A model generated the notes under the pieces. The model did no database searches. It had not been told where the DNA came from and saw nothing but the letters and a program-made list of their open reading frames with translations. A stretch of 64,000 nt of DNA from assembly GCA_965261595.1 (NCBI GenBank), contig CBDHDG010000006.1, forward strand, positions 1,280,001 to 1,344,000, given 5' to 3'. Below are positions 1-37,528 of this stretch, piece after piece; position 1 is the stretch's first letter, and each line of letters opens with the position of its first letter. The stretch comes from a bacterium. GTDB taxonomy: Bacteria > UBA8248 > JACPRG01 > G963555815. A program made the position numbers and the translations under genes.

Positions 1-282
1 GCTGCGGGACGTCAGACTGGTGGTCTTCGCCGGTGCCGGGGTGGAGTGACGGCGGGACATGAACTTGATGTGCTGCTGGAGAAAGCGGCGGTTGAGTTGG
101 TACCTGTCACGTCCGAACACGCCAGCGCCGCACGTCGGGCTTGGCGTCGTTTCGGCAAGGGCAATCACCCTGCGGCGCTGAACGTTGGGGACTGCTTGGC
201 CTATGCGCTCGCCGATGCGACGGGCGAGCCGCTGCTGTTCAAGGGCAAGGACTTCGCCCAAACCGATATCGGGCCGGCGTGA
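1..282 (+). CDS. vapC: VapC-family PIN-domain toxin, 3' part (5' end outside the window or truncated)
   Basis: C-terminus AARRAWRRFGKGNHPAALNVGDCLAYALA..GEPLLFKGKDFAQTDI is characteristic of VapC30-like PIN toxins. Confidence 0.8.
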   Translation, partial: AAGRQTGGLRRCRGGVTAGHELDVLLEKAAVELVPVTSEHASAARRAWRRFGKGNHPAALNVGDCLAYALADATGEPLLFKGKDFAQTDIGPA

Positions 283-396
283 TCGAGAAAACGGGCCGGA
301 GAACGGAAATGCCGATGACTGATCGGGAATGGATGCCTCAGCGATCGCGAATCCACGTGGATGACCGCCGCATCATTTCGCTTGGGTCAGCGCATC

Positions 397-3300
397 ATGA
401 ATAGTCTGATTCAGACTGCCACCGCAGAGCTTGCCGACTTCCTTACGGCACATCTGCCCCCTCTCGGCGGGGATTGGTGGAAGAAGCACGTTGAAGATCG
501 CTTGAGTTTCCAGCAACAGCGTATGGTGCGGGAGCGCGAGCTCACGACGCTGGAGCAACTGGACTTTGCCGCCCTGCTGCGAGTTCTTGACCAGAACTGG
601 CGCGAGCTTTCTCAGGTGCTCAGTCTGCCTCGCGAAGGACGCACATGGGTCAAGGAGCTGCAAACGGTACGTAACAAGTGGGCGCATCGATCGACCCAGA
701 CCATGGAGGCGAGTGAAGTCTATCGTGATGCCGATACCCTCGGCCGTCTCCTCGATATGCTGGGTGCTGCTCCGGAATCCGTCGCAGCGGTTGAGGCCGC
801 GAAGACGGATGCTCTTGCAAGTATGGCGACCGCCCGCGGCGTGATTGCCGGTTCTTCGGAGCCTGCCGAGGGGACAGGCGAACCAGCCGTTGAGGAGACA
901 GCGCAGGGTGGCGGATCCGGATCGTCGGAACCTCCTGAGACGATGTTCCAGGTCGGTAGCTTGGTCGCGCTGCGATCCGATCCGGCGATTGTCATGCCGG
1001 TCATCGAGGTCGTGCCGAGTGGGGCCGAATGTCGCTACCGTGTATTTCAGGACACCAGGAAGGTTACCTACTACGAGAGCCAGCTACGACATCCCGAGCA
1101 GACCGAGGAAGCGCAGCCCCGACCGAGCGCGGCGGACCTGCGCGCGTACCTGACGAGCCTGCATCTGCTCTCGCCCTCGACGGCCAACCTTCATTCGCTG
1201 CGCTCGGGGCGTATTCAGTTCGTGCCTTACCAGTACCGCCCCGTGCTGAAGTTGATCCGGGCGGATCGGCCGCGTCTGCTCATCGCCGACGAGGTCGGCG
1301 TCGGCAAGACGATCGAGGCCGGCCTGATCATCAAGGAGCTGCGGGCGCGCATGGACATCTCCTCCGTGCTCGTGATCTGTCCGAAGGCATTGGTCTCCGA
1401 GCGCAAGTGGTTCGTGGAGATGAAGCGCTTCGACGAACACTTCACGGCGCTCGATGGTCCGATGCTGCGCCACTGTCTGTGGGAAACGCATCTGGACGGC
1501 GAATGGCCGGACCAGTACGCCAAGGCGATCGTCCCGTTCTCGCTGTTCGATTCGGAGCTGATGTTTGGGAAAAGCGGGAGAGGCCGGGGCAGGAGCGAGG
1601 GGCTACTCGCCCTCGACCCGCCGCCCAAGTTCGACCTCGTGATCGTCGACGAAGCGCACCATATCCGCAATCCGGAAACGTACCTCCACCAGGGCGTGCG
1701 CTACTTTTGCGACAACGCGCAGGCCGCCATCTTTCTTACCGCTACGCCGGTCCAGTTGGGCAGCGAGGATCTCTTTACGCTGCTCAACGCACTCCGGCCG
1801 GACCTGGTGATCGACCGTCCGAGCTTCGAACAGATGGCCGCGCCCAATCGGTTTGTCAACGCGGCTGTGGGGCATTGCCGCGCCGCTGAGGATGGCTGGC
1901 AAGGCGAAGCGCGTGCTTGCATGGGCGAAGCCGAGCAAACCGAGTGGGGTCGCCTCTTTCTGCGGGAGTCACCGGCTTTTCAGAACATCTACGACCGGCT
2001 GGGAGGAGAGCAGGTCGATGACGCGAACCGCATCGGCATCGTCCGGTCTCTGGAGGATCTCTATACCTTCAGCCCGATGATCAACCGGACGCGCCGCAGG
2101 GATATCGGCGAGTTCACGACTCGAAGGCCGGAGACGCTGACGACCGAGTTCACGCCCGAGCAGCAGCGCCTGCACGACGATCTGCTCGATGTCGTGGCCC
2201 GTATCCTGGCGTTTGCGCACGGACAGCAGAACGTCAAGTTCATGATGACCACGATTCGCCGCCAGGCGGCGAGCTGTCTGTATGGACTGGCGCCCCTGCT
2301 GCGCAGCATCCTCGCCGGCAAGCTGGATGGCCTTGAGACGATGGAAGCGGGCGACGTCGAGGGCGAAACCGATCTCGGCTTCCTCGCCGAGGCGCGGAGC
2401 GATATCGAGGCGCTTCTGGAGAGAGCCGACAGCCTCGATCCGCGGGACCCGAAGGTTGATGCTTTTGTCCAGGTACTGCGCGACAAGAGCCGAATGGCCA
2501 ACAACAAGGCCCTGGTGTTCAGCACCTTCCGGCACACGCTTGCGTATATCGCAAGGCACACGGAAGACGCGGGATTGCGCTACGGGCTTGTGCATGGTGA
2601 CGTGGCGGACGAGGAGCGGGCGGACTTGCGCCGCCGGTTCGCGCTGCCGAAGGAAGACCCGGACGCGCTGGATGTATTGCTCTCCTCGGAGGTCGGCGGC
2701 GAAGGGCTCGATTTTCAGTTCTGCGACCTGTTGATCAACTACGATCTGCCCTGGAACCCGATGCGCGTCGAGCAGCGCATCGGGCGCATCGACCGCTACG
2801 GTCAACAGAGCGAGACCGTTGCCGTCGTCAATCTGGTTACGCCTGGCACGGTCGACGCAGATATCTACGAACGCTGTTTGTGTCGCATCGGCGTGTTCCA
2901 GCACGCGGTCGGCGGCAGCGAGGAGATTCTTGGCGAGATAACCCGTGAAATCCATGATATCGCGGAGAGCTTCACGCTTACGGCCGAGGAACGCGCGCAA
3001 CGCTTACAGCAGCTCGGCGACAACGGGATTCGGCAAATTCAGGAAGAGCAGGCGCTTGAGGAAAAACAGGCCGAGCTATTCGGGTTGACGGTTCCGAAAC
3101 AGTCCTGGCGCGAGGAGATCGAGGCCGCCGAGACCTTCTGGCTGTCGCCAAACGCCTTGCAGCGCTGCGTCTCGACCTATCTCTCCGGGCTGATGGAAAC
3201 CGAGGGGGAGTTTTTTCTCGGCGAGAAGCCGCTCAAGACTCTGAGGTTGAATCAGGAGACCCGGGCCAGGCTGCTCGAGGACTTCAAGCGTCAACCCCGT

Positions 3301-3996
3301 TCGACCGACCCGGTGGCCCGGCAATGGGAAAGGTGGCTCAAGGGCGCCGGTCCGATGCTGTCGGTCACGTTCGATCAGGAAACCGCCGCGGCCGTCCCCG
3401 ACGCCGTTCACCTGAACGTCCTGCACCCTCTGGTGCGCCAGGCGGCCCGGTTCCAGGAACGTTCCGAGGTTGCCCGCGTCAGCCTGACCGCATCGAGCGA
3501 GAGTCTGCCGGCAGGCGAGTACCCGTTCGCGCTTTACCGCTGGCGCAAGGTCGGGGTGCGAACCGACGAAGCGCTGATCGCGATCAGTACCGAGCCGGCA
3601 ATGGACGACGCCATCATGTCATTGCTGGAGGAGGCCGGCGACGCGCGCGCTGAAATACGGGATGCCGATGAAGCCCTGGATGCGCTCGATCAGCGGCACC
3701 ATGACGAATGGAGCGTCGCGCGAGCGAACCACGTAGCGGAGAATGAGGAGTTGGTCCGGCATCGCCTCCAAAGCCTGGAGGTCAGCCATCAGGCCCGATG
3801 CAGGCTGCTTGAGGACCAGGTTCAACGAGCGACCGATGACAGGATTCGCCGCATGAAGGAGTCCGAGCTGGCGAGAGCCGGATATGACTGCGAGCGGCGG
3901 GTTTCAGATCTGCAGAAGGCAGCGAACAGTGCGGACATTCACGCCGACCTGGTCGTGCTTGGGGTACTCACCGTAACGCGGAGCGACCACGGATGA
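397..3996 (+). CDS. SNF2/RapA-like helicase with N-terminal Swt1-like HEPN domain
   Basis: N-terminal LDFAALLRVLDQNW...VRNKWAH (HEPN Rx4H); Q-motif PYQ, Walker A ADEVGVGKT, IVDEAHH, LTATP, EGLDFQ and YDLPWNPMRVEQRIGRIDRYGQ; ATG at 397 chosen over 361. Confidence 0.88.
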   Translation: MNSLIQTATAELADFLTAHLPPLGGDWWKKHVEDRLSFQQQRMVRERELTTLEQLDFAALLRVLDQNWRELSQVLSLPREGRTWVKELQTVRNKWAHRSTQTMEASEVYRDADTLGRLLDMLGAAPESVAAVEAAKTDALASMATARGVIAGSSEPAEGTGEPAVEETAQGGGSGSSEPPETMFQVGSLVALRSDPAIVMPVIEVVPSGAECRYRVFQDTRKVTYYESQLRHPEQTEEAQPRPSAADLRAYLTSLHLLSPSTANLHSLRSGRIQFVPYQYRPVLKLIRADRPRLLIADEVGVGKTIEAGLIIKELRARMDISSVLVICPKALVSERKWFVEMKRFDEHFTALDGPMLRHCLWETHLDGEWPDQYAKAIVPFSLFDSELMFGKSGRGRGRSEGLLALDPPPKFDLVIVDEAHHIRNPETYLHQGVRYFCDNAQAAIFLTATPVQLGSEDLFTLLNALRPDLVIDRPSFEQMAAPNRFVNAAVGHCRAAEDGWQGEARACMGEAEQTEWGRLFLRESPAFQNIYDRLGGEQVDDANRIGIVRSLEDLYTFSPMINRTRRRDIGEFTTRRPETLTTEFTPEQQRLHDDLLDVVARILAFAHGQQNVKFMMTTIRRQAASCLYGLAPLLRSILAGKLDGLETMEAGDVEGETDLGFLAEARSDIEALLERADSLDPRDPKVDAFVQVLRDKSRMANNKALVFSTFRHTLAYIARHTEDAGLRYGLVHGDVADEERADLRRRFALPKEDPDALDVLLSSEVGGEGLDFQFCDLLINYDLPWNPMRVEQRIGRIDRYGQQSETVAVVNLVTPGTVDADIYERCLCRIGVFQHAVGGSEEILGEITREIHDIAESFTLTAEERAQRLQQLGDNGIRQIQEEQALEEKQAELFGLTVPKQSWREEIEAAETFWLSPNALQRCVSTYLSGLMETEGEFFLGEKPLKTLRLNQETRARLLEDFKRQPRSTDPVARQWERWLKGAGPMLSVTFDQETAAAVPDAVHLNVLHPLVRQAARFQERSEVARVSLTASSESLPAGEYPFALYRWRKVGVRTDEALIAISTEPAMDDAIMSLLEEAGDARAEIRDADEALDALDQRHHDEWSVARANHVAENEELVRHRLQSLEVSHQARCRLLEDQVQRATDDRIRRMKESELARAGYDCERRVSDLQKAANSADIHADLVVLGVLTVTRSDHG

Positions 3997-6900
3997 GCGT
4001 TATTCAAGAAATCCATCGAGATCGTGAGGATCTCGCCCGGGTTCTGAAGAATCACCCCGGAATTCGTAAGATCGTCGAAGATCTGTACCCCGATCGTGCG
4101 CATTTCATTTACGAACTACTGCAGAATGCCGAGGACAAGGATGCATCCGAGGTCTGGTTCGACCTATCGAAAGACGACTTGGTGTTCGAGCACAACGGAA
4201 AAATCTTCGAAGAAGATCACATTCGGGCCATCACCGACATCGGCGAAGGAACCAAAGCGGCCGGCGACGAAAAGATCGGCCGTTTCGGTCTCGGATTCAA
4301 GGCGGTCTTTGCCTATACGGAGACGCCGCGCATCTGGTCGCCGAAGTTTGCGTTCGAAATTTCTGACTTGGTTCTGCCCACCGAGATAAGGAAGGATGAC
4401 TTGCTTGGCGAACTCACGCGGTTCGAATTTCCGTTCAACAACCCGAAGAAGTCGAAGTCAGACGCTTTTGGAGAGGTGCGGGCTGGTCTCCATGAGTTAT
4501 CGGAAACCACGCTGTTGTTCCTCTCCCATATCGAGTCGATTCACTGGCGAGTAGATGGCGGTTCGGAAGGACGCTTGTTGCGAATCTCGCACACCGAGCA
4601 TCACGTTGAGATACTGAGGGAGAGAGATGGCAAGGCGACAAAAAGTTCACACTTCCTCCGTTTCATGGAACTCGTTGAGGGACAGGAACAGCAACACGCC
4701 GCCATCGCGTTTGTGCTCGACGCGTTACCGGTCGTAAGCAGATTCGACAAGACCAAGCCCTTGGCAAAACAGTTCCGAATCACACCGGTCGTGTGGGGAC
4801 GTGTCGCAGTTTACTTTACCGCCGCAAAGGAGACGTCGGGACTGCGTTTCCATCTCCATGCGCCCTTCGTGCCGGAGCTCAGTCGCGCGAGCATCAAGGA
4901 CACGCCGGCGAACGAACCGCTGTTTCAGCAGTTGGCGAATTTGACGGCACAGTCCCTGTCTGCGATCCGCGATCTCGGTTTTCTGAACAGAGACTTTCTC
5001 GCCGTGCTGCCGAACCCACACAACGATCTTCCCGACAGATACGGATGTATACGTGAAGCCATCGTCGACGCGATGAATAAGCAACCGCTGACGCCCACCC
5101 ATGCGGGGACTCATGAGCCGGCCAGGCAACTGCTACAGGCGAGAGCGTCTCTGAAGACCCTCTTGGCCAAGGAAGATATCGAGATTCTCGTCGACTTCGA
5201 GGAGACGCCGCTTGCCTGGGCAATTGGCGCAACTCAGGGTGCAACTCAGAAGGATAAGGATATTGACAGCTTCCTCTCCAGCTTGGACATCAGGGATTGG
5301 GACATTAAACAGTTAGTGGAGAGGTTGGTAGAAGGGTTAAGCAGTAAGCCGAGATTTTCTCATGACGGCAAAAAATATCTTACCGAGCCTGATAAGACGT
5401 TGCTTCAGTGGTTGCGGTCGAAATCCGATGATTGGCACCAAAAACTGTACGCGCTTCTCAATGGGAAAGAATCAGAGGGAATTACGTCCCGACTGAAGTA
5501 TTCCTACATCGTTAGTCTCTCCACCGGCGATTATATGGTTGGCAACGAATGCTACTTTCCTACGGAGGACGTTCAAGAGGACACAATGCTACCGCGGGTA
5601 GCGATCGGTACTTACACTTCGGGAAGGAACAGAAAGGAGCAGATACAGGCTAAAGAATTTCTTGAATCCATCGGCGTCCGTGAGGTTGGCGAGCGTGAAC
5701 AAGTCGAGGCCATTCTCAAGCAGCGATACTCGAAAGAAGCCGAAAACCCTGACAGGAAGACGCATAAGAACGACTTGAGACTCTTCATTTCGTTGGTGGA
5801 GAACGATCCAAAGGCGGCTTCTCTCTTTAAGGATTATTGGATATTTGAGCGGGCTGACGACCAATGGGGACAGCCAGATCAGGTGTATCTCGATACACCG
5901 TATTTCGAAACGGGATTGCATGCCTATTACAGATCACTCGGAGACACAGCGGATCGCGTGGTACTAGCGGACAGTTACAAGAGCCTTGGGATATCGCAAA
6001 GAAAACTGGTGGATTTTGCGAAAGCCGTAAGCACCTTGACTAATCTTGTCATCGAAAAGCAATCGACCTGTGAACACCCAATGTCGAATTCACTTCGTCA
6101 GGACTACCACCAGCGTGGGGTGCGGTCGACGCATACAAGAATCAATGATGATTGGACGATATCCGATCTGACATCGGTGCTGGATCACCCATCGGAGGAA
6201 CTGTCGCGGCTGGTCTGGCATACGATGACCAAGTCGGACGAGAGCATACTGGAAGCCCGGTTCCGCCCGAATCAACAATACGAGACGAAAGTTGAGCCGT
6301 CCACGTTGGTCCTGACATTGCAGGAACTGCCGTGGGTGCCCCAAAGAGACGGAGAATTCGTCCGCCCCGCCGAAGCCTCGCGGGATCTGCTGCCGGAGGG
6401 CTTTCCGTTCGATCCAGGATGGCCGTGGATCAAAGCAATCTGTTTCGGTGAGGAGAGCGTCAAACGACTCGAAGAAATCCAAAGACAACGCGAGGAAGCC
6501 AAGGAGCTTGGCTTTGACGATGCTGAAGCATTAGATGACGCCAAATGGTTTGGCGGATTGAATGCGGAGGAACGGCAACGGCTCAAGTCGGAGCACGAAA
6601 GCAAGCGTATAACGGACCTTCCCGACGACAAGCCAAGCGATCCGGGACGACGCGCTGAGAAGGTTCGCGAGCAGGCCAAGGAAGCGCCGGACCGCGGTGC
6701 CGTAACTGTCCCTCGCTCCGTATCCGAGCACCGCGAAGCGGTCAAGAAGGACACCGACCCTTACCTGCGCACTCAGTATACCAACGGCGACAAAGTAATG
6801 ATCTGCCAAGTGTGCAAGAACGCCCTACCATTCAAGTTGGCCGACGGAAATTATTTCTTCGAAGCCGTGGAGTTCCTGCAGGAATTGCGAAGGCGCCATT

Positions 6901-7118
6901 ACCAGAATTACCTGGCTCTTTGCCCGAATCATGCCGCCATGTACCGGCACGCGAATGGCTCTGCGAAGCGGATGAAGAGTCTGTTTCTCGACTTGACGGG
7001 AAACGAGCTGAAGGTAGTTCTCGCCCGTAAGAACAAGACTGTTTACTTCACCAAAACTCATATCGCCGATCTTAAGGACGTAATCGCGACGGCGGATACG
7101 AATGAGCCGGAGATTTGA
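3993..7118 (+). CDS. Sacsin-like GHKL (HATPase) ATPase with C-terminal HNH-like nuclease domain
   Basis: YELLQNAED, FEHNG, IGRFGLGFKAVF, FHLHAPF; C-terminal CQVC...NYLALCPNH; ATGA overlap with the upstream gene. Confidence 0.82.
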   Translation: MSVIQEIHRDREDLARVLKNHPGIRKIVEDLYPDRAHFIYELLQNAEDKDASEVWFDLSKDDLVFEHNGKIFEEDHIRAITDIGEGTKAAGDEKIGRFGLGFKAVFAYTETPRIWSPKFAFEISDLVLPTEIRKDDLLGELTRFEFPFNNPKKSKSDAFGEVRAGLHELSETTLLFLSHIESIHWRVDGGSEGRLLRISHTEHHVEILRERDGKATKSSHFLRFMELVEGQEQQHAAIAFVLDALPVVSRFDKTKPLAKQFRITPVVWGRVAVYFTAAKETSGLRFHLHAPFVPELSRASIKDTPANEPLFQQLANLTAQSLSAIRDLGFLNRDFLAVLPNPHNDLPDRYGCIREAIVDAMNKQPLTPTHAGTHEPARQLLQARASLKTLLAKEDIEILVDFEETPLAWAIGATQGATQKDKDIDSFLSSLDIRDWDIKQLVERLVEGLSSKPRFSHDGKKYLTEPDKTLLQWLRSKSDDWHQKLYALLNGKESEGITSRLKYSYIVSLSTGDYMVGNECYFPTEDVQEDTMLPRVAIGTYTSGRNRKEQIQAKEFLESIGVREVGEREQVEAILKQRYSKEAENPDRKTHKNDLRLFISLVENDPKAASLFKDYWIFERADDQWGQPDQVYLDTPYFETGLHAYYRSLGDTADRVVLADSYKSLGISQRKLVDFAKAVSTLTNLVIEKQSTCEHPMSNSLRQDYHQRGVRSTHTRINDDWTISDLTSVLDHPSEELSRLVWHTMTKSDESILEARFRPNQQYETKVEPSTLVLTLQELPWVPQRDGEFVRPAEASRDLLPEGFPFDPGWPWIKAICFGEESVKRLEEIQRQREEAKELGFDDAEALDDAKWFGGLNAEERQRLKSEHESKRITDLPDDKPSDPGRRAEKVREQAKEAPDRGAVTVPRSVSEHREAVKKDTDPYLRTQYTNGDKVMICQVCKNALPFKLADGNYFFEAVEFLQELRRRHYQNYLALCPNHAAMYRHANGSAKRMKSLFLDLTGNELKVVLARKNKTVYFTKTHIADLKDVIATADTNEPEI

Positions 7119-7151
7119 GCATCAAGCTAATGGGATGCCCGATACGCAGAA

Positions 7152-7310
7152 TCAAAGTTCTCGCGCCACTTCCGCGATCATGCTTGCGATGCGGTTGGCG
7201 GCGGACTTGACGGGGTCGTTGGCGAGGTGGGCATAGCGGGCGGTCGTGTGTACATGGTTGTGGCCCAATAGCTTACTGATCACGGGCAGGCCTTCGCCGA
7301 CCAGAAGCCT
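7152..7310 (-). pseudogene. Tyrosine integrase C-terminal relic
   Basis: Manual translation GEGLPVISKLLGHNHVHTTARYAHLANDPVKSAANRIA*, homologous to the integrases at 14119-15751. Confidence 0.8.
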
Positions 7311-7761: not shown

Positions 7762-9821
7762 ATGATCAAAGGGGCGCGGCAATTACCGGTTCAACACCTC
7801 ACCATCCGCGTGCCCTGGCACGACAACGGCTGGCAAGGCACGTTCTGCAATAACCCCTGCGGTAACACCAGTTGCACAATCCTACCGCGTATCGCAACCG
7901 GGCGCGACGATGCCCAGGAGACCGAGCTGGCGGGAGGCAGCCTCGAGGAACTGGACCGCGAGCAATTGCCGCCCTGCGTGGACGAACATGCCACCATCAT
8001 GGCGCCGTTCGCGTTGCCGATGGTCAAGAACCATCCCTACGCGAAATCGGCCGAACAGACGCACGGTCATTTCGCCCCCACCCCTTACACGATCCAGCCC
8101 TATTCAGCGGCGGCCATTCCGTTCCACTGGATGCTGAAAGAGCAGGCCGAGGGCAACGAGGAGTTTGGCGTTCCGAGCAGGGCCGAGGATCTCAAGCTGG
8201 GCTATACGGCCGAGCGCGAGCCGGACCTCGGTTTCACCACCAGTTGGGTACAGGAAGGCACGAACCAACGTGTGCTGCTGGACACGTTCTTCAGCGCCGC
8301 CAGGCCGGATCAATCGCTCGTCTTTTTTTACGCGAAACGCACACCGATGGCGGAGGACGTCCGCCGCGTGATTGTTGGCGTCGGGCGTGTGAAAACCATT
8401 GGTGCGGCGACAGCGTATCGCGACGTCGTCGGCACCCGGCCGAATAGCAAGATCAATGGCTACCTGTGGGAACACAATATCGAGCACTCGATACGCCCTG
8501 ATGGTACGGACGGATTTCTGCTGCCTTATCGCGAACTGCTCGCACTCGCCGAAGACGATGCCAGTCTCGATCTCGGCGCCTGCACCGCTTTTGCCCCGGA
8601 CGAGTACTTTGAACAGTACTCCTATGGCAGCGAGCTGCTGTCGCAGGATGGCGCCATTGCCTCATTGCTGGCGCTGGAAAAGGCAATTAAGTCCATGCGT
8701 AGCCTGCTCGAGGCACCCTGGGCGGAGTACCTTCAGTGGATAGACCGAGAGCTTAACCGGCTATGGCAGGTGCGCGGCGCCTTCCCCGGCCTCGGCGCGA
8801 CCCTGCATGCGTTCGGCCTGCCACATGGGAATCTGTTGGCGTGGCACCTGGTGGGCGACAGCGAGAAAGCCATCGACCCGTGGCCTGTATTGACTGCGGC
8901 ACTCAAAAAGCCGTCGTCCCTGCCGGAATACCTCCGCGACGGCATTGGCAAAACCCAGCAGCAGAAGTGGGAAAAACTTCCGGACTCGCGCCGCGCGTTG
9001 CTGATGCTGTTGGCGCGGTTCAATCTGACCAATGTTCAGGCGCTGCGGTGGTATCAGGAGACCGAGAGGGACAGCGCAGGCATCACGCTCGACGACAAGG
9101 ATATCCTGGCCAACCCGTACACGATCTATGAAGCTGATCGTCTTCAAGCGGACCCCATTGCATTCGCGGTGATTGACCGCGGCATGTTCCCCCCGGAGCC
9201 GCTGCGCAAGGATTTCCCGACCCCCGAGCCCAGCAGGGTGCATGAGGCGATAGACCCGCGACGCGTGCGCTCGGCAATGATCCAGACGCTGGAAGACGCG
9301 GCCGGTGAGGGGCACACACTGATACCGGCCTCCTGGCTGATCCAGCGCGTGCGTGCGCGGCCCATGAAACCAGAGTGTCCCGTAGATGCAGACACACTTG
9401 CTGTCGTGGGAGACAGCCTGGAACCATTGATTACGACAGTCAATCTGGAAACAGAGGACGATGCGTTTCAGCTCGATCGCTATGTCGAAACGTCGAAGCT
9501 GATCGACGCTGCGATTACGAAGCGCAGAAACGGCAAGGCAAACGGCGGTGAATCCGATTGGGCCGCGTTGGTTAATGAGGCGATTGATGAGGGGAAAAAG
9601 AAATCCGCACTTACCGCTGACGACAAAAAGGCGCGTCAGGAAAAGGCTGCTGCGCTGAAAGAATTGTACCGGGGCCGGGTTTGCTTATTGATGGGATCTG
9701 CCGGTACCGGTAAGAGCACATTGCTGAAAGCCCTATGCCGCATCGATGCAGTATTTAAAGGCGGCATCCTGTTGCTCGCCCCTACCGGCAAAGCGCGCGT
9801 CAGACTCGAACAAGCCAGCGG
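7762..9821 (+). pseudogene. RecD-like SF1 helicase with Cys-rich N-terminal domain, truncated by IS insertion
   Basis: HLTIRVPWHDNGW..C..P..N..C N-terminus; Walker A GSAGTGKST and motif Ia LLAPTGKARVRL immediately before the IS end at 9822. Confidence 0.8.
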
Positions 9822-11225
9822 TCCCCCGCTCTAGGGTTTTGTTGGACACTCGATTGATCCATGATTCATGGAGAAAGGGGTGTCGCGATGAACGAACAAA
9901 AGCAAGAGGGGGCTTTGGCGGAGGGCGCGCGTAGGGCGAACGGAGCCAAGGCCCCAGGGCATCGCAGTGAGCGGGGTCGGTTCTCCTGCCAGCGCAAGCG
10001 GGAGGCGGTCCTGCGTCTTTTGCGGGGCGAGAGCCTGGAGACGCTCTGCCGCGAGTTGGGCACGACAGCGGCTCGGCTTTCCGCCTGGCGCGAGGCGTTC
10101 CTTCGCGGGGGCGAGGCGGCGCTCAAAGCCCGCCCGGCGGATGAGCGGGCCGAGGAGAACGCCCGGCTCAAGGCCAAGGTGGGCGAACTCACGATGGAGG
10201 GCGAGGTCCTGCGGGAGAAGATCGACCGCCTGGAGGCCGGCCGCCCTTTAGCCGGCAGGAGGTGGAGGCGATGAGTCAGGCCCGCTTCACCTCCACGGGC
10301 AGAGCCTACGGCCTGAAGCGGGTGTGCGCCCTTTGGGGCTTGGCGCGCTCCACGGTCTACGCGCAACGGCGGCGAGAGGCGGTCCCCGTTCATGAACGCC
10401 CCACGCCCAATAAGCGCGGCCCTGTGGGCCCGTGCACCGATGCGGAACTCCTCGGCCACATCCTGCAGGTCCTGGAGGACTCTCCCTTCCATGGCGAGGG
10501 CTACCGCAAGGTGTGGGCGAGGCTGCGCTTCGCGGGCATCCGCACCAGCAAGGAGCGGGTGCGTCGCCTGATGCGGGAGGCGGGGCTTCAGGCCCCCCAC
10601 CGGGTGGGCAAACCCCGAGGTCCCAAGGCCCACAACGGGACCATCCGCACCGAGCGGCCCGACCGAATGTGGGGCACGCACATGACGACGACAGTGACCA
10701 CCGAGGAGGGGATGGCCTCGGTGTTCGTGGCGGTGGATCACTGCTCGGTGGACTGCGTGGGGATCCATGCGGCCAAGAGCGGCAACCGCTTCGAGGCCCT
10801 GGAGCCGATCCGGCAGGGGGTCGCCGAGCGCTTCGCCGGCTTGGAGGCGGACGTCGCCGAGGGGCTTAAAGTTCGTCACGACCACGGCCCCGCCTATCTG
10901 TCCGATGACTTTCAGCGGGAGATCGCCTACCTGGGCATGACCAGTTCGCCCAGCTTCGTGCGGGCGCCCGAGGGAAATGGCTACTGTGAGTGGTTCATCC
11001 GCATCTTGAAGGAGAATCTCCTGTGGGTGCGCTCTTTCGCCACCGTAGAGGAACTGCGGTGGGCGCTGCTTGAGTTCAAGAACCTGTATAACCATCATTG
11101 GATTCTCGAGGGCTACGGCTACCGAACGCCGGCCCAGGCAAGGCAGGAAAAACTCGCTCAAGTTGCGGAGGCCGCATGAGGTCGAATACCCTCACCCGAG
11201 TGTCCAATAACCCAGGGGCGGTCCA
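9822..11225 (+). mobile_element. IS3-family element, copy 1 (orfA ~9888-10274, orfB 10271-11179)
   Basis: HTH orfA and rve orfB with ATGA overlap; imperfect IRs TCCCCCGCTCTAGGGTTTTGTTGGACACT / AGTGTCCAATAACCCAGGGGCGGTCCA; first catalytic Asp is His in this copy (WGTHM vs WGTDM). Confidence 0.93.
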
Positions 11226-12678: not shown

Positions 12679-13926
12679 TCATATCACAGCGGTTTCGGCG
12701 GTAGCGTCCACGTTCATCATGGCATCGATCCTGTCGGCGATGCGTTGTGAGGGCTCGCGGAGCTGCTCCACGGTCCAGTCGGCGGCGTAGCCTTCGGTGA
12801 TGTCATCATCACGGGCGTGGTTGACCAGCCGCTTGGTCAGCGAGCGCGGCAGCATCAGTTCACGCTCCGCCACCGTGATGAAGACATTGCGCAGGCCGTG
12901 GAACCAGAACCGGGTCCCCGCGGCGCGCCCGATATCGACGTAATACTGGTGAATGCCGCCGAGATGGCCCGTCGAACTCATGGAGGAGGGGAACACCCAG
13001 CCGTCCGGGTCCTCTCCGTCCGCCCGGCGGCGCTCGAATATCGCCGCCAGCTGCCGGGTGACGGGAAGCTCCAGCGGCTCTCCGGTCTTGGTCTCCTCGA
13101 CTCGCAGGATACGCCGCTCCAGTTCCAGGCGCTCCCATCTGAGCGAGACGATCTCGCCCAGGCGCATACCGGTATAGACCCCGACCAGGAAGATGTCGCG
13201 GTGCGCGGGCGGAAGCCCGACGGCATCCACACCGGCGCGCCAGCGCGGCAGCACCTCGGAAGGGGCGGAGATGCGCCGCCGCCGCTTGGGGTGGTAGCGC
13301 CCGCCCCCGGCGAGCCAGAGTTCGACCGGGTTGCGCAAGCCCTCGTGATCGACGCAGGACCGGCGATAGATGGAACGCAGCAGTGAAATCGTCTGATTGG
13401 CGCCCGCCCAGCCGTGCTCCTCGGTGATGAGGTTGAACCGTCCCTCAATGTCCCGCCGGGTAATGGCGTCGAGCGGACGGTTGCGCCAGCCGCGGAGATT
13501 GATCCGCATGTTCTGGCGGTAGCGCTCCACCGTCCTTGCCTTGCGGTTGGGGTTGGCGTCCATGTAGTCCTCGAACGCTTCTCCGAGGGTCGGCATTCCC
13601 CGCGCATCTGCGCGTTCAGAGGCGGGGTCGTCCCCTCCGGCGACGCGGCCGAGCAGTTCCTGGGCCATGCGCCGCGCCTTGTCGGGCGTGATGCGCCCGT
13701 AGCGCCCGAGGGTGACGCGCTTGTTGGGCGCCTTGCGCCCGCCGTCTCCGGCGCGGTAGTTGACGACAAAGGTCCTGGTGCCCGTAGGCTGGACGCGGAC
13801 ACCGAAGCCGGTGAGCTTGTCGTCCCATGCGATCCAGGGTTTCTCGGCGGGCTCGAGGGCCTCGACGGTTCGCTTGGTCAGGGTCAGCTTGACTTTGGCG
13901 ATGCGTTTTACGAGGTGGTTTTCCAT
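12679..13926 (-). CDS. P4-like tyrosine integrase with arm-binding domain
   Basis: WDDKLTGFGVRV arm domain; TGMRLGEI, HGLR, LVNH and TEGY catalytic residues intact. Confidence 0.92.
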   Translation of the reverse strand: MENHLVKRIAKVKLTLTKRTVEALEPAEKPWIAWDDKLTGFGVRVQPTGTRTFVVNYRAGDGGRKAPNKRVTLGRYGRITPDKARRMAQELLGRVAGGDDPASERADARGMPTLGEAFEDYMDANPNRKARTVERYRQNMRINLRGWRNRPLDAITRRDIEGRFNLITEEHGWAGANQTISLLRSIYRRSCVDHEGLRNPVELWLAGGGRYHPKRRRRISAPSEVLPRWRAGVDAVGLPPAHRDIFLVGVYTGMRLGEIVSLRWERLELERRILRVEETKTGEPLELPVTRQLAAIFERRRADGEDPDGWVFPSSMSSTGHLGGIHQYYVDIGRAAGTRFWFHGLRNVFITVAERELMLPRSLTKRLVNHARDDDITEGYAADWTVEQLREPSQRIADRIDAMMNVDATAETAVI

Positions 13927-14118
13927 GCGGACATTATAAGCAAACGCGAAAATAGTTCAACCCGATATTCAACACAAGGAAGTAAACTGGTGCCCGGACA
14001 TTCGCACCAATGGCGAGCGGTCCGAGGTGATTATTCCAGTTAACATACTGAAATACATGCATATATGTCGTCATTTGTCTATTCATGTGTATCCGTGACC
14101 AATTCAATTGATAAATGC

Positions 14119-14550
14119 TGGGACGACGTGGACCGCACGGCGGGCGAGTTGAGGCTCAGGGACGCCAAGTCGGGTCCGCGCATGGCGCCCCTAACCGGGC
14201 ACGTGCTGAGAGTGCTTAACGGCATTCCCCGTATCGAAGGCACTCCCTGGGTGCTTGTCGGACAAAGGCCGGGGACCGGTCTGACGAACCTCGACCACTA
14301 CTGGCAACCCATCCGGGCGCAGGCCGGCTTGGATGACGTCCGGATTCACGACATCCGGCACAGCTATGCATCGAGGGCCCTGGCGCTGGGCGAGAGCCTG
14401 CCCGTGATCGGCAAGCTGCTCGGTCACAGTCAAGTATCAACGACAGCACGTTATGCGCACTTGATGCGGGATGCGGAGAAGGAAGCCGCGACCCGGGTGG
14501 GCGACAGCATCGGCGCCCACATCGGGCCGCGGAGCACCGAGGCGGCATGA
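14119..14550 (+). pseudogene. 5'-truncated tyrosine integrase
   Basis: Begins abruptly at WDDVD after an AT-rich stretch; RIHDIRHSYASRALALGESLPVIGKLLGH..TTARYAHL. Confidence 0.85.
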
Positions 14551-14561
14551 GGCTGGATGAC

Positions 14562-15751
14562 ATGGCGAAGCTGGAATACAAGACGCTCTCGAACCGCACG
14601 GTCGAGAAGCTGAAGGTAGAAAAAGACACGGTGTTCTGGGATCACGAGCTCACCGGCTTCGGGATGCGGGTCTATCCCGCGGGCGGCAAGGTCTATGTCG
14701 CCCAGGCCCGGGGACCGGGGGGACCGAAGCGGGTCACGGTGGGCCGGCACGGGGTGCTCGGCGCGGAGCAGGCACGTCAGCGGGCGGCCCTGATCATCGC
14801 CCGGGTCAAGGCCGGCGAGGAGCCGGTGCCCGAGCCCATGGCGGTGAAGCTGTCCGGTGGGCCGACAGTGGGCCAGCTTGCGAGGCGGTTTCTCGAAGAG
14901 CACGTGGCGGTGCGCTACAAGCCGAGCACCATGAAGTCGACTCGCACGGTGGTGAATCGTCATATCGTGCCCGCCCTCGGTCAGCTACCGCTGGAGGCGG
15001 TCAGCCGCGCACGGGTCATGGAGCTGCATGACGAACTCTACGAGACCCCTGTGATGGCGAACATGGTGGTCCGCACCCTGTCGCTGATGTACAGGCTGGC
15101 CGAGAGCTGGGGGCTCGTTCCGGAGGGATGCAACCCCTGCCGGCTGGCGGTCAGGTTTCCGGAGCGCAAGCGGGAAAGGTTTCTGACCGATGGAGAGTTC
15201 ACCCGCCTGGGAAAGGTGCTGGATGAGGTCGAGACCCGGGGCGGCGCGTCGGCATCCGCGGTGACCGCTCTCCGTCTGCTTATGCTGACCGGATGCCGGA
15301 AGAACGAGATCCTGACCCTTCGGTGGGAGGACGTGGCGCTGGATCAGAATGAATTGAGACTGCCCGACGCCAAGACGGGCGCACGGGTGGTTCCATTGTC
15401 GCCCTCGGCGGTGAGGCTTCTTTCCGGTCTGCCGCGAGAACCGGCCAACCCCTGTGTCATTCCCGGGCGGAAGCCGGGCACGCATATGAGCAACGTGGAT
15501 CAGGCCTGGCAGGTCATCTGGGCGAGGGCTGGCCTGGAGGACGTCCGGATCCATGACCTGCGTCACAGCTTTGCGTCCAGGGCCCTGGCGCTGGGGGAGA
15601 GCTTGCCGATGATCGGAAAGCTGTTAGGCCACAGCCAGGTCGAGACCACGGCCCGGTACGCCCATCTGGCGCGGGATTCGGTGCAGGAGGCCGCGGAGCG
15701 AATCGCCGACAGCATCGCGGCCGACATCCTGGGCGAAGGCTGGAGGCCGGC
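14562..15751 (+). CDS. P4-like tyrosine integrase; extreme C-terminus interrupted by IS3 (frame reads through to 15824)
   Basis: FWDHELTGFGMRV, TGCRKNEI, RIHDLRHSFAS, LLGH, TARY. Confidence 0.9.
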
Positions 15752-17013
15752 TGGAGTTACCCCGGTTTGGTGGAGAGTTAAGCACTTGGGTTTTCAGGGT
15801 GTGCGTTGTTGTCTCCTTTCGTAGTTAACGGGTGACAGGTTGTCGATGGAGGAGTGCCGACGACGCGGGTTGTAGAAGCCCTCGATGAACCCGAACACCT
15901 CCATGCGCGCCTCGGCCCGGGTGCGGAAACTGTGGCGAGCGAGGAGCTCGCACTCCAGCGTGGCGAAAAAGCTCTCACACAGCGCGTTGTCGTAGCAGTC
16001 CCCGACCGAACCCATGGAGGGACGCCCGCCCGCCTGCCGGCAGCGCTGCCCAAAGGCGACCGAGGTGTACTGCGTGCCCTGGTCGGAGTGGTGGATGACG
16101 GCCCGGGGACGGCGCTTATACAGCGCCATGTCGAGCGCGTCGAGCACCAACTCGGCCCGCAGGTGTGTGGCCATCGACCACCCCACGATGCGCCGGCTGA
16201 ACGCATCGAGCGCCACGGCCAGATACAAAAACCCCGCCCATGTCGGAACGTAGGTGATGTCGGCCACCCACAGCCGGTCGGGGGCCTCGGCCGTGAAGTT
16301 GCGGTCCACCAGATCAGGGGCCGGCCGCGCCTCCTGCCGGCGCTGCGTCGTGCGCGCTCCCTTGCGCCGACTGACGCCCGCAAGTCCCGCCCCACGCATC
16401 AGCGCCTGGCGACGCGCTTGCGGCCCACACGCACTCCCTCAGCCTCCAGCTCGGCATGGACGCGCGGCACGCCGCAAGTCCCCCGAGAACGCTCGTGGAT
16501 CGCCTGAATGCGTTTGGTGAGCGCCCGATCGGCACACGAGCGGGCACACGGCGCGCGCCTGCACCACGCGTAGTAGCCGCTGGAGGAGACCCCAGCACCC
16601 GGCACATGGTGGCGGTCCGATACATGGCCTGGTTCGCCCTCACGAACCCGTAGATCCGGACGGGATCGAATCGGTCTCCCGAGCAAACCAGGCCGCGGCT
16701 TTTGCCAGGATCTCCCGCTCCTGGCGGAGCTGTCGGTTCTCGCGGCGAAGTCGGCGCAACTCCTCCCGCTCATCGCTCGTGAGCCCGTCTTTGCGACGCC
16801 CCTCGTCGACGTCGGCTTGATGGGCCCAGGTGCGGATCGTCTGCACCGAGGGCTCGAACTCGCGCGCCAGCGCCTCGGGCGTGCGTCCCGCCCAGACCAA
16901 CTCTACCATCTGGCGGCGGAACTCCATTGGATAGCGTGGGTGCAGCCTGCGGCATCGTGAACACCTCCTTTACCCCCAAATCATCAGGTGTCCACCAAAC
17001 CGGGTCAACTCCA
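15752..17013 (-). mobile_element. IS3-family element, degenerate (frameshifts in orfA and orfB)
   Basis: TG...CA ends with IRs TGGAGTT(G/A)(A/C)CCCGGTTTGGTGGA; WVADITY, HHSDQGTQY and DNALCESFF motifs; no TSD. Confidence 0.9.
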
Positions 17014-34144: not shown

Positions 34145-35607
34145 GGGCAGACCCCCAGAAAATCGAGGTTGACACGGGCTTGGGGATTTGCTACAAGGAG
34201 GGTCTGTGAGGTCCTCTCTTGTAGCAACGCCCCGGGGTTCCCTCGGGGCTTCCACCCTTTGAAGTTCCATATACCACATGTAGTGGGTCGGATTCAATTT
34301 TCGAGGGACCACCATATCTTGTGTCTTACTGCGTCAAGGGCATAATCACGAATGAATTGCACTCGCTGGCTCGTCCGGTTCGCCGAGCACACCGGTCGTG
34401 TCCGGCATCCTGGCGAGCTCGCCGACGGTTTATGCCTCCTCGATGAGTATCTCGCTGAGTTGGGCGGCGAAGGCTATAGGCCCCGGGCGCTCAAGTCCTA
34501 TCACTACAGATGCCACCACTTTCTGACCTGGCTCCACCAGTGCCGTATTCCTTTGGCGGAGGTGAACGCCAGCACCCTGGAACGGTTTGTCGACCATGAC
34601 TGTGTCTGCCCGTGGAGGATGCGCAACATAGAAAAACGGAAGTCTCGGCATATCGGCTCCATCAAGGCGTTTCTACGGTTCCTCTTCACCAGCGGGGTGA
34701 TGCCGGACGCTTTCCCTGTCGAAGATTCCGGCGCCGCAATGTCGGGGTTCCGTTCATGGCTCCGCCGGCATCGCGGCATCGGGGACGTCACCATTCGCAA
34801 GTATGTGAAGACCCTCTCTTTGTTCTTGCCCGAGCTGGGAGATGATTCTCGGCACTACGACGCGGCTCTCATCATGGATGTCATGTTGAGCCGTTTCACG
34901 AAGATCGCGCCGGAATACGCGCGGGAGATGACGAAAGCCCTGCGCATGTATCTGCGATTCCTCGCCTCGAATGGAGCGTGTCGACCGGAACTCGTCAACG
35001 CCGTGCCATCGGTGCCGCAATGGAGACTTGCGACCCTCCCCCGCTACATCCCAACCGATGATATCGAACGGGTGATCGCGTCGTGCAACGCCAGGACAGC
35101 GGCGGGAGTTCGCGACCGGGCGGTCTTGCTGCTTCTGGCCAGGCTGGCGCTTCGCGGAGGCGACATCTGCGAGCTGCGGTTGGACGACATCGATTGGACA
35201 AAGGCCCTCGTCAAGGTCAGCGGGAAGTCCAAGAGATCGGTTCAGTTGCCGCTTCCCCAGGATGCCGGAGACGCGATCCTCGACTACATCGAGAAGGCAC
35301 GGCCTCGAATCGATGAGAGCAAGTTGTTCCTGCGGGTGCTGGCGCCGCATGTGCCATTCCGTTCTTCCAGAGTTGTTACCCACATCGTGTGTCGAGCTCT
35401 GGATCGAGCAGGAATGCACGAGGCGAGTCCGAGGGGCGCCCAACTGTTCCGGCACTCCACGGCGACCGGTCTGCTGCGGTCCGGAGCCTCGCTGGAGACT
35501 GTCGGCACGTTGCTGAGGCACCGCTTGCCGAACACCACCGCGATCTACGCCAAGGTCAATGTCCCCATGCTCCAGGAAGTGGCGCAGCCCTGGATAGGAG
35601 ACGTCCA

Positions 35608-36531
35608 ATGAACATGATCGACAACGTGGAGCGGTACATCACCTTCAAGCGCCATCTGGGGTTCAAGTTCGTCGAGGACGCTCGGACACTGCGAGCTTTT
35701 GCGCATGAGGCCGTCGCCTGCAGCGATGGCTTCATCCGAGCCGCCTCGGTGATCGCTTGGGCCCGCAAGACATCGACAGCTGGCCAAGCACGCATCCGCC
35801 TGCGAATGGTTCGTGGCTTGGCCGTGTGGCTTCACGCTGAGGACCAACGCCACGAGGTTCCCTCGCCGGTTGCCCTCGGCCGAGTGCCGGTGAGGAGATC
35901 CTCCCCTCATCTCCTGAGCGCGGTCCAGGTCAAGGAGATCATGGACGCGGCGTTGTTAATGAGAAGCACAGGTCCGCTCAACGGTTATACGTACCACTAC
36001 ATGATCGGGCTGCTTGCCTCGACGGGATTGCGTCTCTCGGAAGGGCTCGCCTTGAAGCTGACCGACATCACCCCCGATGGGCTGGTGGTCAGACAATCCA
36101 AGCTCGGAAAATCGCGGTTGGTTCCCCTTCACGAGAGTACGAGCAACGCGCTGAGCGAGTATCTTGAGATCAGGATGCGCAAGGGCGGATGCCACGAACA
36201 CCTGTTCGTTCTCTCCAACGGCAAACCCCCTCATCACAGCACTCTCTCGAAGATCTTCCTCAGACTCGCCAGGCAACTCGGCTACCGCGGTAGTCCAGGG
36301 GAGCCGGGTACGCGACTGCACGATTTGCGACATGGATTCGCCACGCGTTCGCTTGAGAACGCAGTCGCGGTCGATCGCGACAGCGTCAGCCGACACGTCC
36401 TGGCGTTATCCACCTATCTCGGTCACGTCAGCATGGCCTCGACCTACTGGTATCTGGAAGCTACGCCCGTCCTGCTCCGGGAGATCGCCCGCGCTGCTGA
36501 AAACACACATGTGGGGAGGATCTTGAGATGA
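35608..36531 (+). CDS. ritB: RitB tyrosine recombinase
   Basis: YITFKRHLGFK, TGLRLSEG, RLHDLRHGFA, LSTYLGH..TYWYL. Confidence 0.88.
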   Translation: MNMIDNVERYITFKRHLGFKFVEDARTLRAFAHEAVACSDGFIRAASVIAWARKTSTAGQARIRLRMVRGLAVWLHAEDQRHEVPSPVALGRVPVRRSSPHLLSAVQVKEIMDAALLMRSTGPLNGYTYHYMIGLLASTGLRLSEGLALKLTDITPDGLVVRQSKLGKSRLVPLHESTSNALSEYLEIRMRKGGCHEHLFVLSNGKPPHHSTLSKIFLRLARQLGYRGSPGEPGTRLHDLRHGFATRSLENAVAVDRDSVSRHVLALSTYLGHVSMASTYWYLEATPVLLREIARAAENTHVGRILR

Positions 36532-37528
36532 CCGCGCTTTCCCCCCATATCAGCAAGTTCCTGTACGAATATCTGCCGCGCGATCGTGGCGCGAGTCAGC
36601 ATACTATCGATAGTTACTCGGTGAGCTTCCTACAGCTCATTGACTTCGCCGAAAACAGGCTTCGCGTTCGGGCTTGTACGCTCACGATCGAGCAGTTGAC
36701 GGCCGAAGTCATCCTCGACTTCCTCGAACACCTGGAACGGGACCGCGGAAACACGATTGGAACACGCAATGTACGACTGGCCGCGATTAAATCCTTCTTC
36801 CGATTCCTTGAGCATCGGGCGCCGGCATGTCTTCACTTGGCAGCCCAAGTCCACGCGATTCCGCTTAAGCGCCGCAATCAACCATTGGTCGACTACCTCG
36901 ACCACAATGAAGTACAGGCCGTGCTTGAAGCACCGGATCCGTCGACGCGTGCGGGGATACGCGACCGCGCGATGCTCCACCTTGCCTATGCGGCTGGACT
37001 GCGAGTGTCGGAGTTGGTGGGCGTTACATGCCACGATCTCGAGCAACCCGGTCTCAACCTCGTCCGCATCCGCGGAAAGGGGCGCCGCGAACGCGTACTC
37101 CCACTGTGGGCGCAGACACGATCGGTGCTCCGGGACTGGCTCGCGATACGTCCTGAGGCGACCAGCCCCTACCTGTTCCTCAACGCCCGCGGGGTGGTCA
37201 TGACCCGCCACGGCTTCGCTCACCGTCTGAAGCGGCATGCGGACACTGCTCGGCGATCAGTACGTCGATTGCCACCAAGCGCATCACCCCCCACGTGCTT
37301 CGGCACAGCTGCGCCATGAATACCTACGAATCCGTCGGCGACATCCGCAAAGTCTCGACCTGGTTGGGTCATGCAAGCGTCCAAAGTACGGAGATCTATG
37401 TCCGGGCAGATACATTGGAAAAGCTCGACATACTTGCTGCACGACGGCCTCCGTCGATCCGCAAGGGGGTCTTCATCGATGCTAGGGACCGGTTGATGAG
37501 GATACTGAACGAAGACAAGCTGAAATAG
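36528..37528 (+). pseudogene. ritC: RitC tyrosine recombinase, frameshifted near 37262
   Basis: RNVRLAAIKSFF, GLRVSEL, GKGRRER; ITPHVLRHSCAM..WLGH..TEIY continues in another frame. Confidence 0.85.

Follow-up and report, generated by a model that had tools for sequence, protein, structure and literature searches.

Organization of the locus

We have analysed a 64,000-nt window of a bacterial contig (CBDHDG010000006.1, positions 1,280,001 to 1,344,000 of the forward strand), near whose start lie two adjacent large genes, gene 1 coding for a HEPN-SNF2 protein and gene 2 for a sacsin/Hsp90-like GHKL ATPase. From the sequence alone, an earlier note had put this pair forward as an undescribed two-gene anti-phage system, in which a DNase would attack DNA directly and an RNase would act as an abortive back-up. 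As the note had indicated, both open reading frames (ORFs) are intact and share an ATGA overlap. The pair is laid out as follows.

397..3996, + strand: gene 1, HEPN-SNF2 protein (longest ORF 361..3996, 1211 aa)
3993..7118, + strand: gene 2, sacsin/Hsp90-like GHKL ATPase with helical repeats and a degenerate HNH domain (ORF of 1041 aa)
3993..3996, + strand: ATGA start/stop overlap, translational coupling (read in the sequence)

The longest gene 1 ORF begins at ATG 361, which leaves 360 nt of the window upstream of it. ATG 397 is the likelier start as judged from the alignments, because homologues align from residue 11-13 of the protein initiated at 361. Residue numbers given below for gene 1 refer to the 1211-aa protein.

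Gene 1: a HEPN domain on an SNF2 motor

424..759, + strand: Swt1-like HEPN domain, residues 22-133 (Pfam PF18731, HEPN_Swt1, E 1e-17)
670..687, + strand: HEPN Rx4H motif RNKWAH (read in the sequence)
793..954, + strand: acidic/Gly-Ser-rich linker, residues ~145-198 (from the sequence; poorly conserved)
1225..1842, + strand: SNF2 ATPase lobe 1, residues 289-494 (Pfam ResIII/SNF2-rel_dom)
1297-1311, + strand: Walker A GVGKT (SNF2 motif I)
1648-1659, + strand: DEAH (SNF2 motif II)
2452..2805, + strand: SNF2 ATPase lobe 2, Helicase_C, residues 698-814 (Pfam Helicase_C E 1.4e-20)
2773-2805, + strand: motif VI QRIGRIDRYGQ
2938..3993, + strand: C-terminal RapA/DrmD-like region, residues 860-1211 (no Pfam domain)

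Judged by its domain and motif matches, gene 1 is a Swt1-type HEPN fused to a RapA/DrmD-like SNF2 motor, Pfam and the motifs agreeing with the HEPN domain, acidic linker and full SNF2 motor described in the earlier note. Across a 52-sequence alignment of gene 1 homologues, G313, G315, K316 and T317 of Walker A and the DEAH are invariant (52/52), V314 is found in 49/52 and the motif VI residues are kept in 46-52 of the 52 sequences. The linker diverges freely, with a mean column identity to the window protein of 0.20 over residues 151-200. R104 of the HEPN motif is kept in 46/52 sequences and H109 in 45/52, and the form RN[KR]WAH in 45-46, in an aligned set that includes HEPN-less forms. The HEPN domain is the sole nuclease in the pair with an intact catalytic motif and is a predicted RNase.

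There is a near end-to-end match between residues 199-1189 and the PADLOC DrmD model PDLC02623 (2.3e-115), and the NCBIfam DISARM_DrmD score is 314.7 bits, under the 610-bit cut-off. The nearest solved relative is RapA (E 1.2e-46), with an NCBIfam RapA score of 181.6 bits that lies well under the cut-off of 576. An Atlas lead would place the C-terminal 350 residues with RapA_C, a family carried by just 15% of cluster members. Both PF18731 and SNF2 domains occur in 119 of the best 120 gene 1 homologues (~1198 aa), which the databases name merely 'helicase-related protein' or 'HepA', and a PHROGs search returned generic helicase families only.

Gene 2: ATPase and middle region

4062..4361, + strand: sacsin-type Bergerat ATP-binding core, residues 24-123 (Pfam SACS, NCBIfam P_loop_sacsin)
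4113-4136, + strand: N-box ELLQNAED
4278-4301, + strand: glycine box GRFGLGFK
4905..6422, + strand: middle region of helical/small beta-hairpin repeats, residues ~305-810 (AlphaFold2 secondary structure)

The sacsin-type GHKL motifs noted earlier in gene 2 were borne out by Pfam SACS (1.8e-17), by NCBIfam P_loop_sacsin (94 bits, cut-off 50) and by the sacsin structures 5v44-5v47 (E ~1e-17). E41, N45, D48, G96, G99 and G101 are invariant in 107/107 gene 2 homologues, and on these matches gene 2 is a sacsin/Hsp90-type GHKL ATPase with predicted ATP hydrolysis. An AlphaFold2 model built from these 107 diverse homologues (mean predicted local distance difference test score, pLDDT, 92; predicted template modelling score 0.69) superposes on full-length Hsp90, TRAP1 and HtpG over 500-740 columns and also matches the N-terminal domain of a MutL-family protein. 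In the model the ATPase is followed by a beta-rich segment, a long run of helical/hairpin repeats and the C-terminal domain. PADLOC TmtA models detect gene 2 at 2e-48 to 1e-11, their matches covering only the N-terminal ~600-800 positions of profiles 1063-1782 long (models scoring 2e-48 to 3e-35 reach residue ~600-800 of gene 2), and Pfam gave no DUF3684 match at E ≤ 0.1.

Of the 50%-identity cluster representatives, 1385 are related to gene 2 at E ≤ 1e-30. No fusion of an SNF2 domain to a sacsin-like ATPase was found in the best 120 of 191 longer relatives, which is weak evidence. Other fusions are present in this family: sacsin-type ATPases are joined to superfamily 1 helicases (AAA_11/AAA_12, UvrD-like) in proteins of 1820-2170 aa (P0273-P0286) and to transglutaminase-like domains in proteins of 2000-2570 aa (P0287-P0340).

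The two genes are inherited as a pair

A one-genome-per-species scan yielded at least 606 pattern matches, of which at least 551 encode a gene 2 relative, and the best 80 were kept, giving 65 loci. Three of these (L024, L031 and L037) have gene 2 at a contig end or as a fragment, which leaves 62 evaluable loci. In 53 of the 62, which come from many phyla, gene 2 is immediately preceded on the same strand by a close SNF2 homologue (47-76% identity); in one more (L027) the adjacent SNF2 homologue is divergent, so that adjacency holds in 54/62 loci and homologues of the two genes are far from being rarely adjacent. The other eight have a different, Type III-linked arrangement. Where both ORFs were called, the 4-nt overlap recurs at 35 of 45 junctions (28 ATGA, 7 GTGA); two others are TTGA, six have the next start within ~10 nt and two have gaps (132 and 278 nt). 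A relative on a Rhizobium plasmid, ~30% identical and the one inspected of three full-length plasmid matches, also follows an SNF2 gene, at a 1-nt spacer. The HEPN domain was found by tblastn in 43 of the 49 partners whose N-terminus lies on the contig, four more partners being cut by contig ends. These comparisons identify the pairing as a real, conserved and translationally coupled unit, far beyond chance.

The two genes co-vary in pairwise identity (r = 0.67 over 41 pairs, a value reached by 0/999 permutations), which shows co-inheritance only and not binding. Gene 1 is the more conserved, with a mean pairwise identity of 62% vs 47% for gene 2. The gene 2 tree is discordant with taxonomy, an actinobacterial sequence being sister to an alphaproteobacterial one and Acidobacteriaceae grouping with Burkholderia, which points to horizontal transfer, as expected of mobile defence genes. 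A search for a phage origin gave one partial match in 50,697 phage records, and a search of 72,556 plasmids gave three full-length matches of only ~30% identity, the Rhizobium sequence among them, and no near-identical plasmid DNA.

GC content differs between the two genes within this one overlapping operon, 0.63 in gene 1 vs 0.53 in gene 2 (0.77 vs 0.63 at third codon positions). Gene 2 lies below gene 1 in 41/41 related pairs, by 0.037 on average; the gap in the window, 0.096, is among the largest, together with those of L021, L059 and L041. The drop may reflect replacement of gene 2 through recombination.

The C-terminus of gene 2 has an HNH fold and lacks the canonical active site

6690..7115, + strand: McrA-like HNH fold with beta/alpha cap, residues 900-1041 (profile vs 6ghc, Foldseek)
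6804-6815, + strand: zinc ligands CQVC
6861-6875, + strand: EAVEF, at the position of EVHHV in McrA
6921-6932, + strand: zinc ligands CPNH

The terminal HNH-like module of the earlier note stood as a fold, and its catalytic reading did not. A profile of the gene 2 family hits EcoKMcrA (6ghc) in its HNH domain at E 6.5e-7, and a separate model of residues 895-1041 (pLDDT 90) has 6ghc as its top Foldseek match (E 1.2e-3, prob 1.00), followed by 6ghs, TagI, Cas5-HNH, Cap5, PacI, Gme and VcaM4I. Since all of these are HNH enzymes, the C-terminal fold is HNH. The McrA segment 'LEVHHVIP ... DNCVALCPNCH' aligns with 'FEAVEFL ... QNYLALCPNHA' of the family, which places V959 (V in 93/107) and E960 (E69/Q19/D4/R3/S2) at the HH dyad of McrA and A981 (A82/S20/G5 of 107) at the His after its second zinc knuckle; from textbook HNH enzymes, we take these McrA positions to be the general base and the catalytic-metal ligands. 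H980 of CPNH sits at the fourth zinc Cys of McrA and is H63/C41/D3 across the 107 homologues, an alternation of H, C and D from which it is read as a metal ligand. The His of CPNH is by this alignment a zinc ligand and not a catalytic base. C938, C941 and C977 are near-invariant, E957 is kept in 103/107 homologues and N972 in 79/107. The module keeps its zinc site and has lost the canonical active site; with the zinc site kept and the catalytic His positions replaced, the DNase for direct attack proposed in the earlier note is unsupported.

A similar module occurs on a Proteus mirabilis plasmid (L067, 3177-5729), at the end of an 850-aa hypothetical protein without a Pfam domain, 39% identical there to gene 2 residues 924-1027. 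This protein adjoins a restriction endonuclease, a GIY-YIG nuclease, a DEAD helicase and a methyltransferase, and the degenerate HNH module is thus reused in another architecture.

A minority of relatives is joined to Type III restriction-modification genes

The eight loci with the different arrangement (L039, L047, L049, L052, L056, L061, L064 and L065) form one clade of the unrooted gene 2 tree, with 100% support in the SH-like approximate likelihood ratio test. Their operon order is HTH_17-SNF2, AbiJ-like Abi_C (HEPN), mod, res and gene 2. The SNF2 protein of this clade carries HTH_17 and no HEPN (DrmD model PDLC02619, 1e-192), and a separate AbiJ-like Abi_C (HEPN) gene is present in 5/8 operons; the methyltransferase matches PDLC03636 (5e-225) and the restriction subunit PDLC03648 (1e-232). 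The HEPN is fused elsewhere and encoded separately here, and so travels with the ATPase module either way. L012 and L014 are arranged as mod, res, HEPN-SNF2 and gene 2, so that the module is joined to a Type III restriction-modification (R-M) system in 10/62 evaluable loci. The window has neither mod nor res. These forms, with the HEPN sometimes on an AbiJ-like protein, had been missed in the earlier note, whose statement that no methyltransferase lies next to the pair holds for the window, with its 360 nt of upstream sequence, and is not a rule of the family. The Type III-linked forms suggest that the core module can also serve a DNA-cutting partner.

Defence genes flank many loci

PADLOC models were compared at E ≤ 1e-25 with flanking ORFs that measured at least 280-300 aa and lay no more than 5 kb away, in a first batch of 19 loci (82 proteins) and a second of 28 loci (91 of 132 selected flanking ORFs). 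At least one match was obtained in 11/19 and 11/28 loci, respectively, a match of L049 to its own helicase being excluded. When the Type III loci L012, L039 and L049 are added, known or candidate defence genes flank 25/47 loci, a raw count. The matches comprise Azaca ZacABC, Lamassu LmuAB, a CBASS cyclase with E1-E2, Avs3, BREX PglZ/BrxD/BrxHI, TIR-APAZ with short pAgo, HmaB/HmaC, AbiU, SoFic, HEC-01A, the candidates PDC-S01, PDC-S02, PDC-S13 and PDC-S68, and Type I, IIG and C5 methyltransferases. The defence reading of the pair is well supported by this context; its function is predicted.

Two loci carry related genes directly after the pair. L009 (13138-19013) has a further SNF2 paralogue, one without HEPN, together with a Type IIG/DrmMI-like methylase, and L030 (14102-22821) has a second gene 2 paralogue with a C5 methylase and SNF2. 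These are stacked related systems.

Relation to known systems

PADLOC v2 assigned each gene only to a single component, DrmD and TmtA, respectively, and found no matching multi-gene system, so that no full match to a named system emerged. Gene 2 shares its sacsin/Hsp90-type ATPase with Tiamat (TmtA) and, to judge from the reach of the TmtA profiles, may share some of the middle region as well. Canonical Tiamat, however, consists of one gene, whose C-terminal PD-(D/E)xK (NOV_C/DUF3883) nuclease is missing from gene 2, whereas the SNF2 partner is nearly obligatory here. Membership in canonical Tiamat was rejected, the C-terminus being an McrA-like HNH and the system not being single-gene. Closer likenesses are contained in the accessible part of a preprint (bioRxiv 10.64898/2026.09.30.754977, 1 Oct 2026), which describes a Tiamat-like Type IV-A made up of an ATPase, DUF3684 and an HNH-like fold lacking catalytic residues; gene 2 resembles it in its ATPase, middle region and catalytically depleted HNH-like fold. 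The same part places Type IV-B with those neighbourhoods in which a nuclease is fused to the helicase and names Swi/Snf among superfamily 2 (SF2) neighbours, and its text contains no HEPN-helicase, HEPN being mentioned there for sacsin alone. The designation 'undescribed' was therefore overstated. The pair combines a GHKL ATPase of Tiamat-like kind with a nearly obligatory partner of HEPN-SNF2 type, and is composed of familiar defence parts and already partly catalogued.

DISARM has a DrmA/DrmB core with DrmC and a DrmM methylase. By its PADLOC model, though under the NCBIfam cut-off, the class 1 helicase DrmD resembles gene 1 in the RapA-like SNF2 core and the C-terminal region, whereas the N-terminal HEPN of gene 1 is not part of DrmD. 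None of DrmA, DrmB, DrmC and DrmMI is found in the window or conserved across the 65 loci; in L009 alone, a distinct DrmD/DrmMI-like pair adjoins the locus. With the DrmA/DrmB core and the DrmM methylase missing from the locus, DISARM membership was rejected.

The Hma system, in the portions of the reports available (PMC12839542, PMC11232893), consists of an SNF2-nuclease (HmaA), a methylase (HmaB) and a HEPN-DUF499 ATPase (HmaC), the HEPN on the DUF499 ATPase of this Type-1 BREX-related system being read there as a 'backup effector' (PMC12839542). On that description, Hma likewise brings together, within a single operon, a RapA-like SNF2 motor, another large ATPase, a HEPN RNase and a domain of DNA-nuclease type. 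It is nevertheless a mirror image, having the HEPN on the ATPase and the nuclease on SNF2, whereas here the helicase bears the HEPN and the ATPase the degenerate nuclease; moreover, the Hma ATPase is described as STAND/AAA+ rather than GHKL, and no methylase belongs to the core here. The PADLOC HmaA match to gene 1 covers the helicase core only (8.5e-38). Hma membership was rejected, as the window holds no methylase and gene 2 has no HmaC match.

Precedents for GHKL ATPases in such settings are given in the accessible sections of several papers. HEPN (Ymh) domains are fused to paraMORC GHKL ATPases in R-M neighbourhoods and are read as analogues of PrrC/RloC (PMC3710099), MORC/paraMORC ATPases are teamed with SF2 helicases and methylases in R-M systems (PMC2292703), and the GHKL-nuclease Shedu VcSduA is a relative in kind (PMC12137116). 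As there described, PrrC/RloC and the Ymh-HEPN-paraMORC proteins are alike in placing a HEPN RNase under the control of an ATPase, within R-M loci or next to them. In contrast, the GHKL branch here is that of sacsin/Tiamat, the HEPN is Swt1-like rather than Ymh/PrrC and is fused to the helicase and not the ATPase, and most loci are without R-M genes. Animal sacsin has the same ATPase family and also pairs it with a HEPN (PF25794 + PF05168), although that HEPN is of another family (PF05168) and lies in the same polypeptide, without SNF2 or HNH; the ATPase-HEPN association of sacsin is probably independent of that of the pair. A named HEPN-SNF2 or HEPN-helicase fusion system was not found in the literature searched, in which subscription-only papers were not covered.

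Surroundings of the pair in the window

1..282, + strand: PIN (VapC-like) ORF, 3' end, running off the window start (Pfam PIN 1.5e-8)
7762..9834, + strand: PDC-S68 gene, N-terminal half, cut by an IS3-family element (PADLOC PDLC05065 1.5e-250)
10262..11176, + strand: IS3-family orfB (rve)

The VapC-like PIN ORF ends 115 nt before the likely start of gene 1. Downstream of the pair, the PDC-S68 fragment covers positions 4-668 of the 1221 of the PDLC05065 profile; the gene is cut at ~nt 9822, about codon 686, by an insertion sequence (IS) spanning ~9822-11225, and its remainder is absent. The pair itself has not been hit by IS elements, in agreement with the earlier note. Full-length PDC-S68 adjoins the pair in 6/65 loci (L008, L011, L013, L026, L034 and L044), directly downstream and on the same strand in four of the six, a recurrence that could reflect a functional link or merely a common island. 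The 640-nt spacer between gene 2 and PDC-S68 (7119-7761) shows weak minus-strand coding similarity, at spacer nt 52-219, to an ORF of L029 and may hold a gene remnant. A conserved third small gene was sought in this spacer, and only weak minus-strand similarity in two loci was found. Consensus scans of nt 1-8000 for promoters and terminators gave fewer sites than shuffled sequence and are uninformative as to operon boundaries.

The window is a mobile-element-rich region. The IS3-family element is present in four ~1.4-kb copies, 99% identical, at 9822-11225, 18468-19871, 23459-24865 and 38710-40117. A 431-aa ORF repeated four times was considered as the transposase and dropped, having no Pfam match and lying antisense to the real IS3-type orfB; this antisense ORF is probably spurious in each copy. 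Three tandem tyrosine-recombinase ORFs (starts 34352, 35389 and 36528) lie within 34352..37316 (+), an arrangement that we take to resemble a recombinase-in-trio element, and further integrase genes are found at 12679..13926 (-) and 14065..15824 (+). The segment 41891..59620 codes for a ParB_N protein, a 1496-aa Strawberry-notch-like helicase (AAA_34 + Helicase_C_4), a single-stranded DNA-binding protein, a YAcAr/SLOG protein and a NikA-like protein, and resembles an integrative or conjugative element backbone.

Discussion

The reading that we favour, at about even odds, is that the two genes constitute a translationally coupled nucleic-acid surveillance module, directed against phages or mobile elements, with HEPN-mediated RNA cleavage as its output. 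The repeats and the zinc-bearing degenerate HNH of gene 2 would bind nucleic acid and, by precedent from other GHKL proteins, gene 2 would close as an ATP-driven dimeric clamp, while the SNF2 motor of gene 1 would translocate on double-strand DNA. The two proteins would form a physical complex, and the ATPase pair would recognise invading DNA or a stalled complex, the presumed trigger. Two HEPN domains would thereby be brought together, a step proposed because HEPN RNases act as dimers. Cleavage, presumably of RNA, would follow and could abort infection or arrest growth. In the Type III-linked minority, Mod and Res would contribute a DNA-cutting arm and a means of telling self from non-self by methylation. 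In a tentative and less probable form of this idea, the pair is a DNA sensor that does not cut DNA, the dead HNH of the sacsin-type clamp serving purely as DNA reader and ATP-driven dimerisation, with the SNF2 motor taking part, switching on the HEPN RNase.

Several observations weigh against a surveillance module with RNA cleavage as its output. The HEPN is not detectable in 6/49 complete partners and yet the pair is kept; one of these (L017) has DUF2283 and a weak HTH in its place, and in the others (L018, L044, L053, L055 and L063) nothing was detectable. The HEPN is therefore not a universal effector, and these six partners speak for an effector that can be exchanged rather than for the central part of the machine. 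The 65 loci represent the nearest relatives (39-60% identity) rather than a sample of the family as a whole, 22/47 loci are without a PADLOC neighbour, and the claim of a defence neighbourhood, borne out in that 25/47 loci are flanked, is tempered in that this count has no background control and methyltransferase matches inflate such counts. PacI cuts DNA without canonical HNH residues, according to the accessible text of the preprint (10.64898/2026.09.30.754977), so that the HNH-like domain may be active. No experiment on this family was found in the literature searched.

The example of PacI, an HNH enzyme cited there for cutting although it is without the canonical residues, also bears on restriction-like DNA degradation, in which motor and clamp would deliver a non-canonical but active HNH DNase, with the HEPN as abortive back-up. 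The fold is truly HNH, closest to the restriction enzymes McrA and TagI, E957, N972 and the zinc site are retained to the extent described above, and the HEPN-less variants need another effector. We nevertheless consider such degradation doubtful, as the general-base and metal-ligand His positions are occupied by V959/E960 and A981, with E960 itself only E69/Q19 of 107, and no modification gene lies beside the pair, either in this window or in the majority of loci. A sequence-independent DNase would consequently lack self-protection. An R-M connection could instead mean that the pair is an accessory or guard module of an R-M system, as PrrC is with EcoprrI, sensing R-M failure or inhibition or aiding translocation. 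This is suggested by the eight-locus clade, in which gene 2 directly follows Type III res, by the placement of mod and res ahead of the pair in L012 and L014, by R-M or methyltransferase genes flanking L009, L027, L030, L033, L034 and L048, and by GHKL-HEPN fusions in R-M neighbourhoods, a precedent taken from the portion of PMC3710099 available. We consider it unlikely, in that no conserved R-M neighbour is present in the other 44 of the 54 loci with SNF2 adjoining gene 2, and none in the window. The Type III-linked forms are, in addition, a single nested clade and a minority state, in an unrooted tree that leaves polarity open. It would imply, with the same low probability, that the pair does little in the absence of an R-M partner, and that the partner in this genome is located away from the window.

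A non-immune role, as a RapA-like RNA-polymerase/DNA remodeller with an Hsp90-like chaperone acting for a mobile element or in housekeeping, would fit RapA as the nearest solved relative of gene 1, the superposition of gene 2 on full-length Hsp90/TRAP1, the integrase, IS and integrative-element setting of the window and the 22/47 loci without a PADLOC neighbour. The conserved HEPN motif, the restriction-type HNH fold, the patchy, taxonomy-discordant spread and the frequent defence neighbours are, however, unlike housekeeping, and gene 1 falls far under the RapA cut-off. We regard this role as very improbable.

The pair is widespread and cleanly defined, with an unusual distribution of domains. 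It is found in at least several hundred species-representative genomes of many phyla, as counted from the at least 551 confirmed stretches. The RNase is placed on the SNF2 motor, an arrangement not studied in the literature searched, and a restriction-type HNH domain has apparently been kept for a role other than cutting. Through the Type III-linked relatives, nature provides a comparison between the module alone and the module equipped with a methylation-based arm. If the pair is indeed a DNA sensor as outlined above, it would provide a tractable two-protein bacterial model for a sacsin-type ATPase controlling a HEPN domain, would bear on the unexplained domain pairing in the human ataxia protein sacsin, and would represent a new, widespread abortive-infection system deserving its own name.

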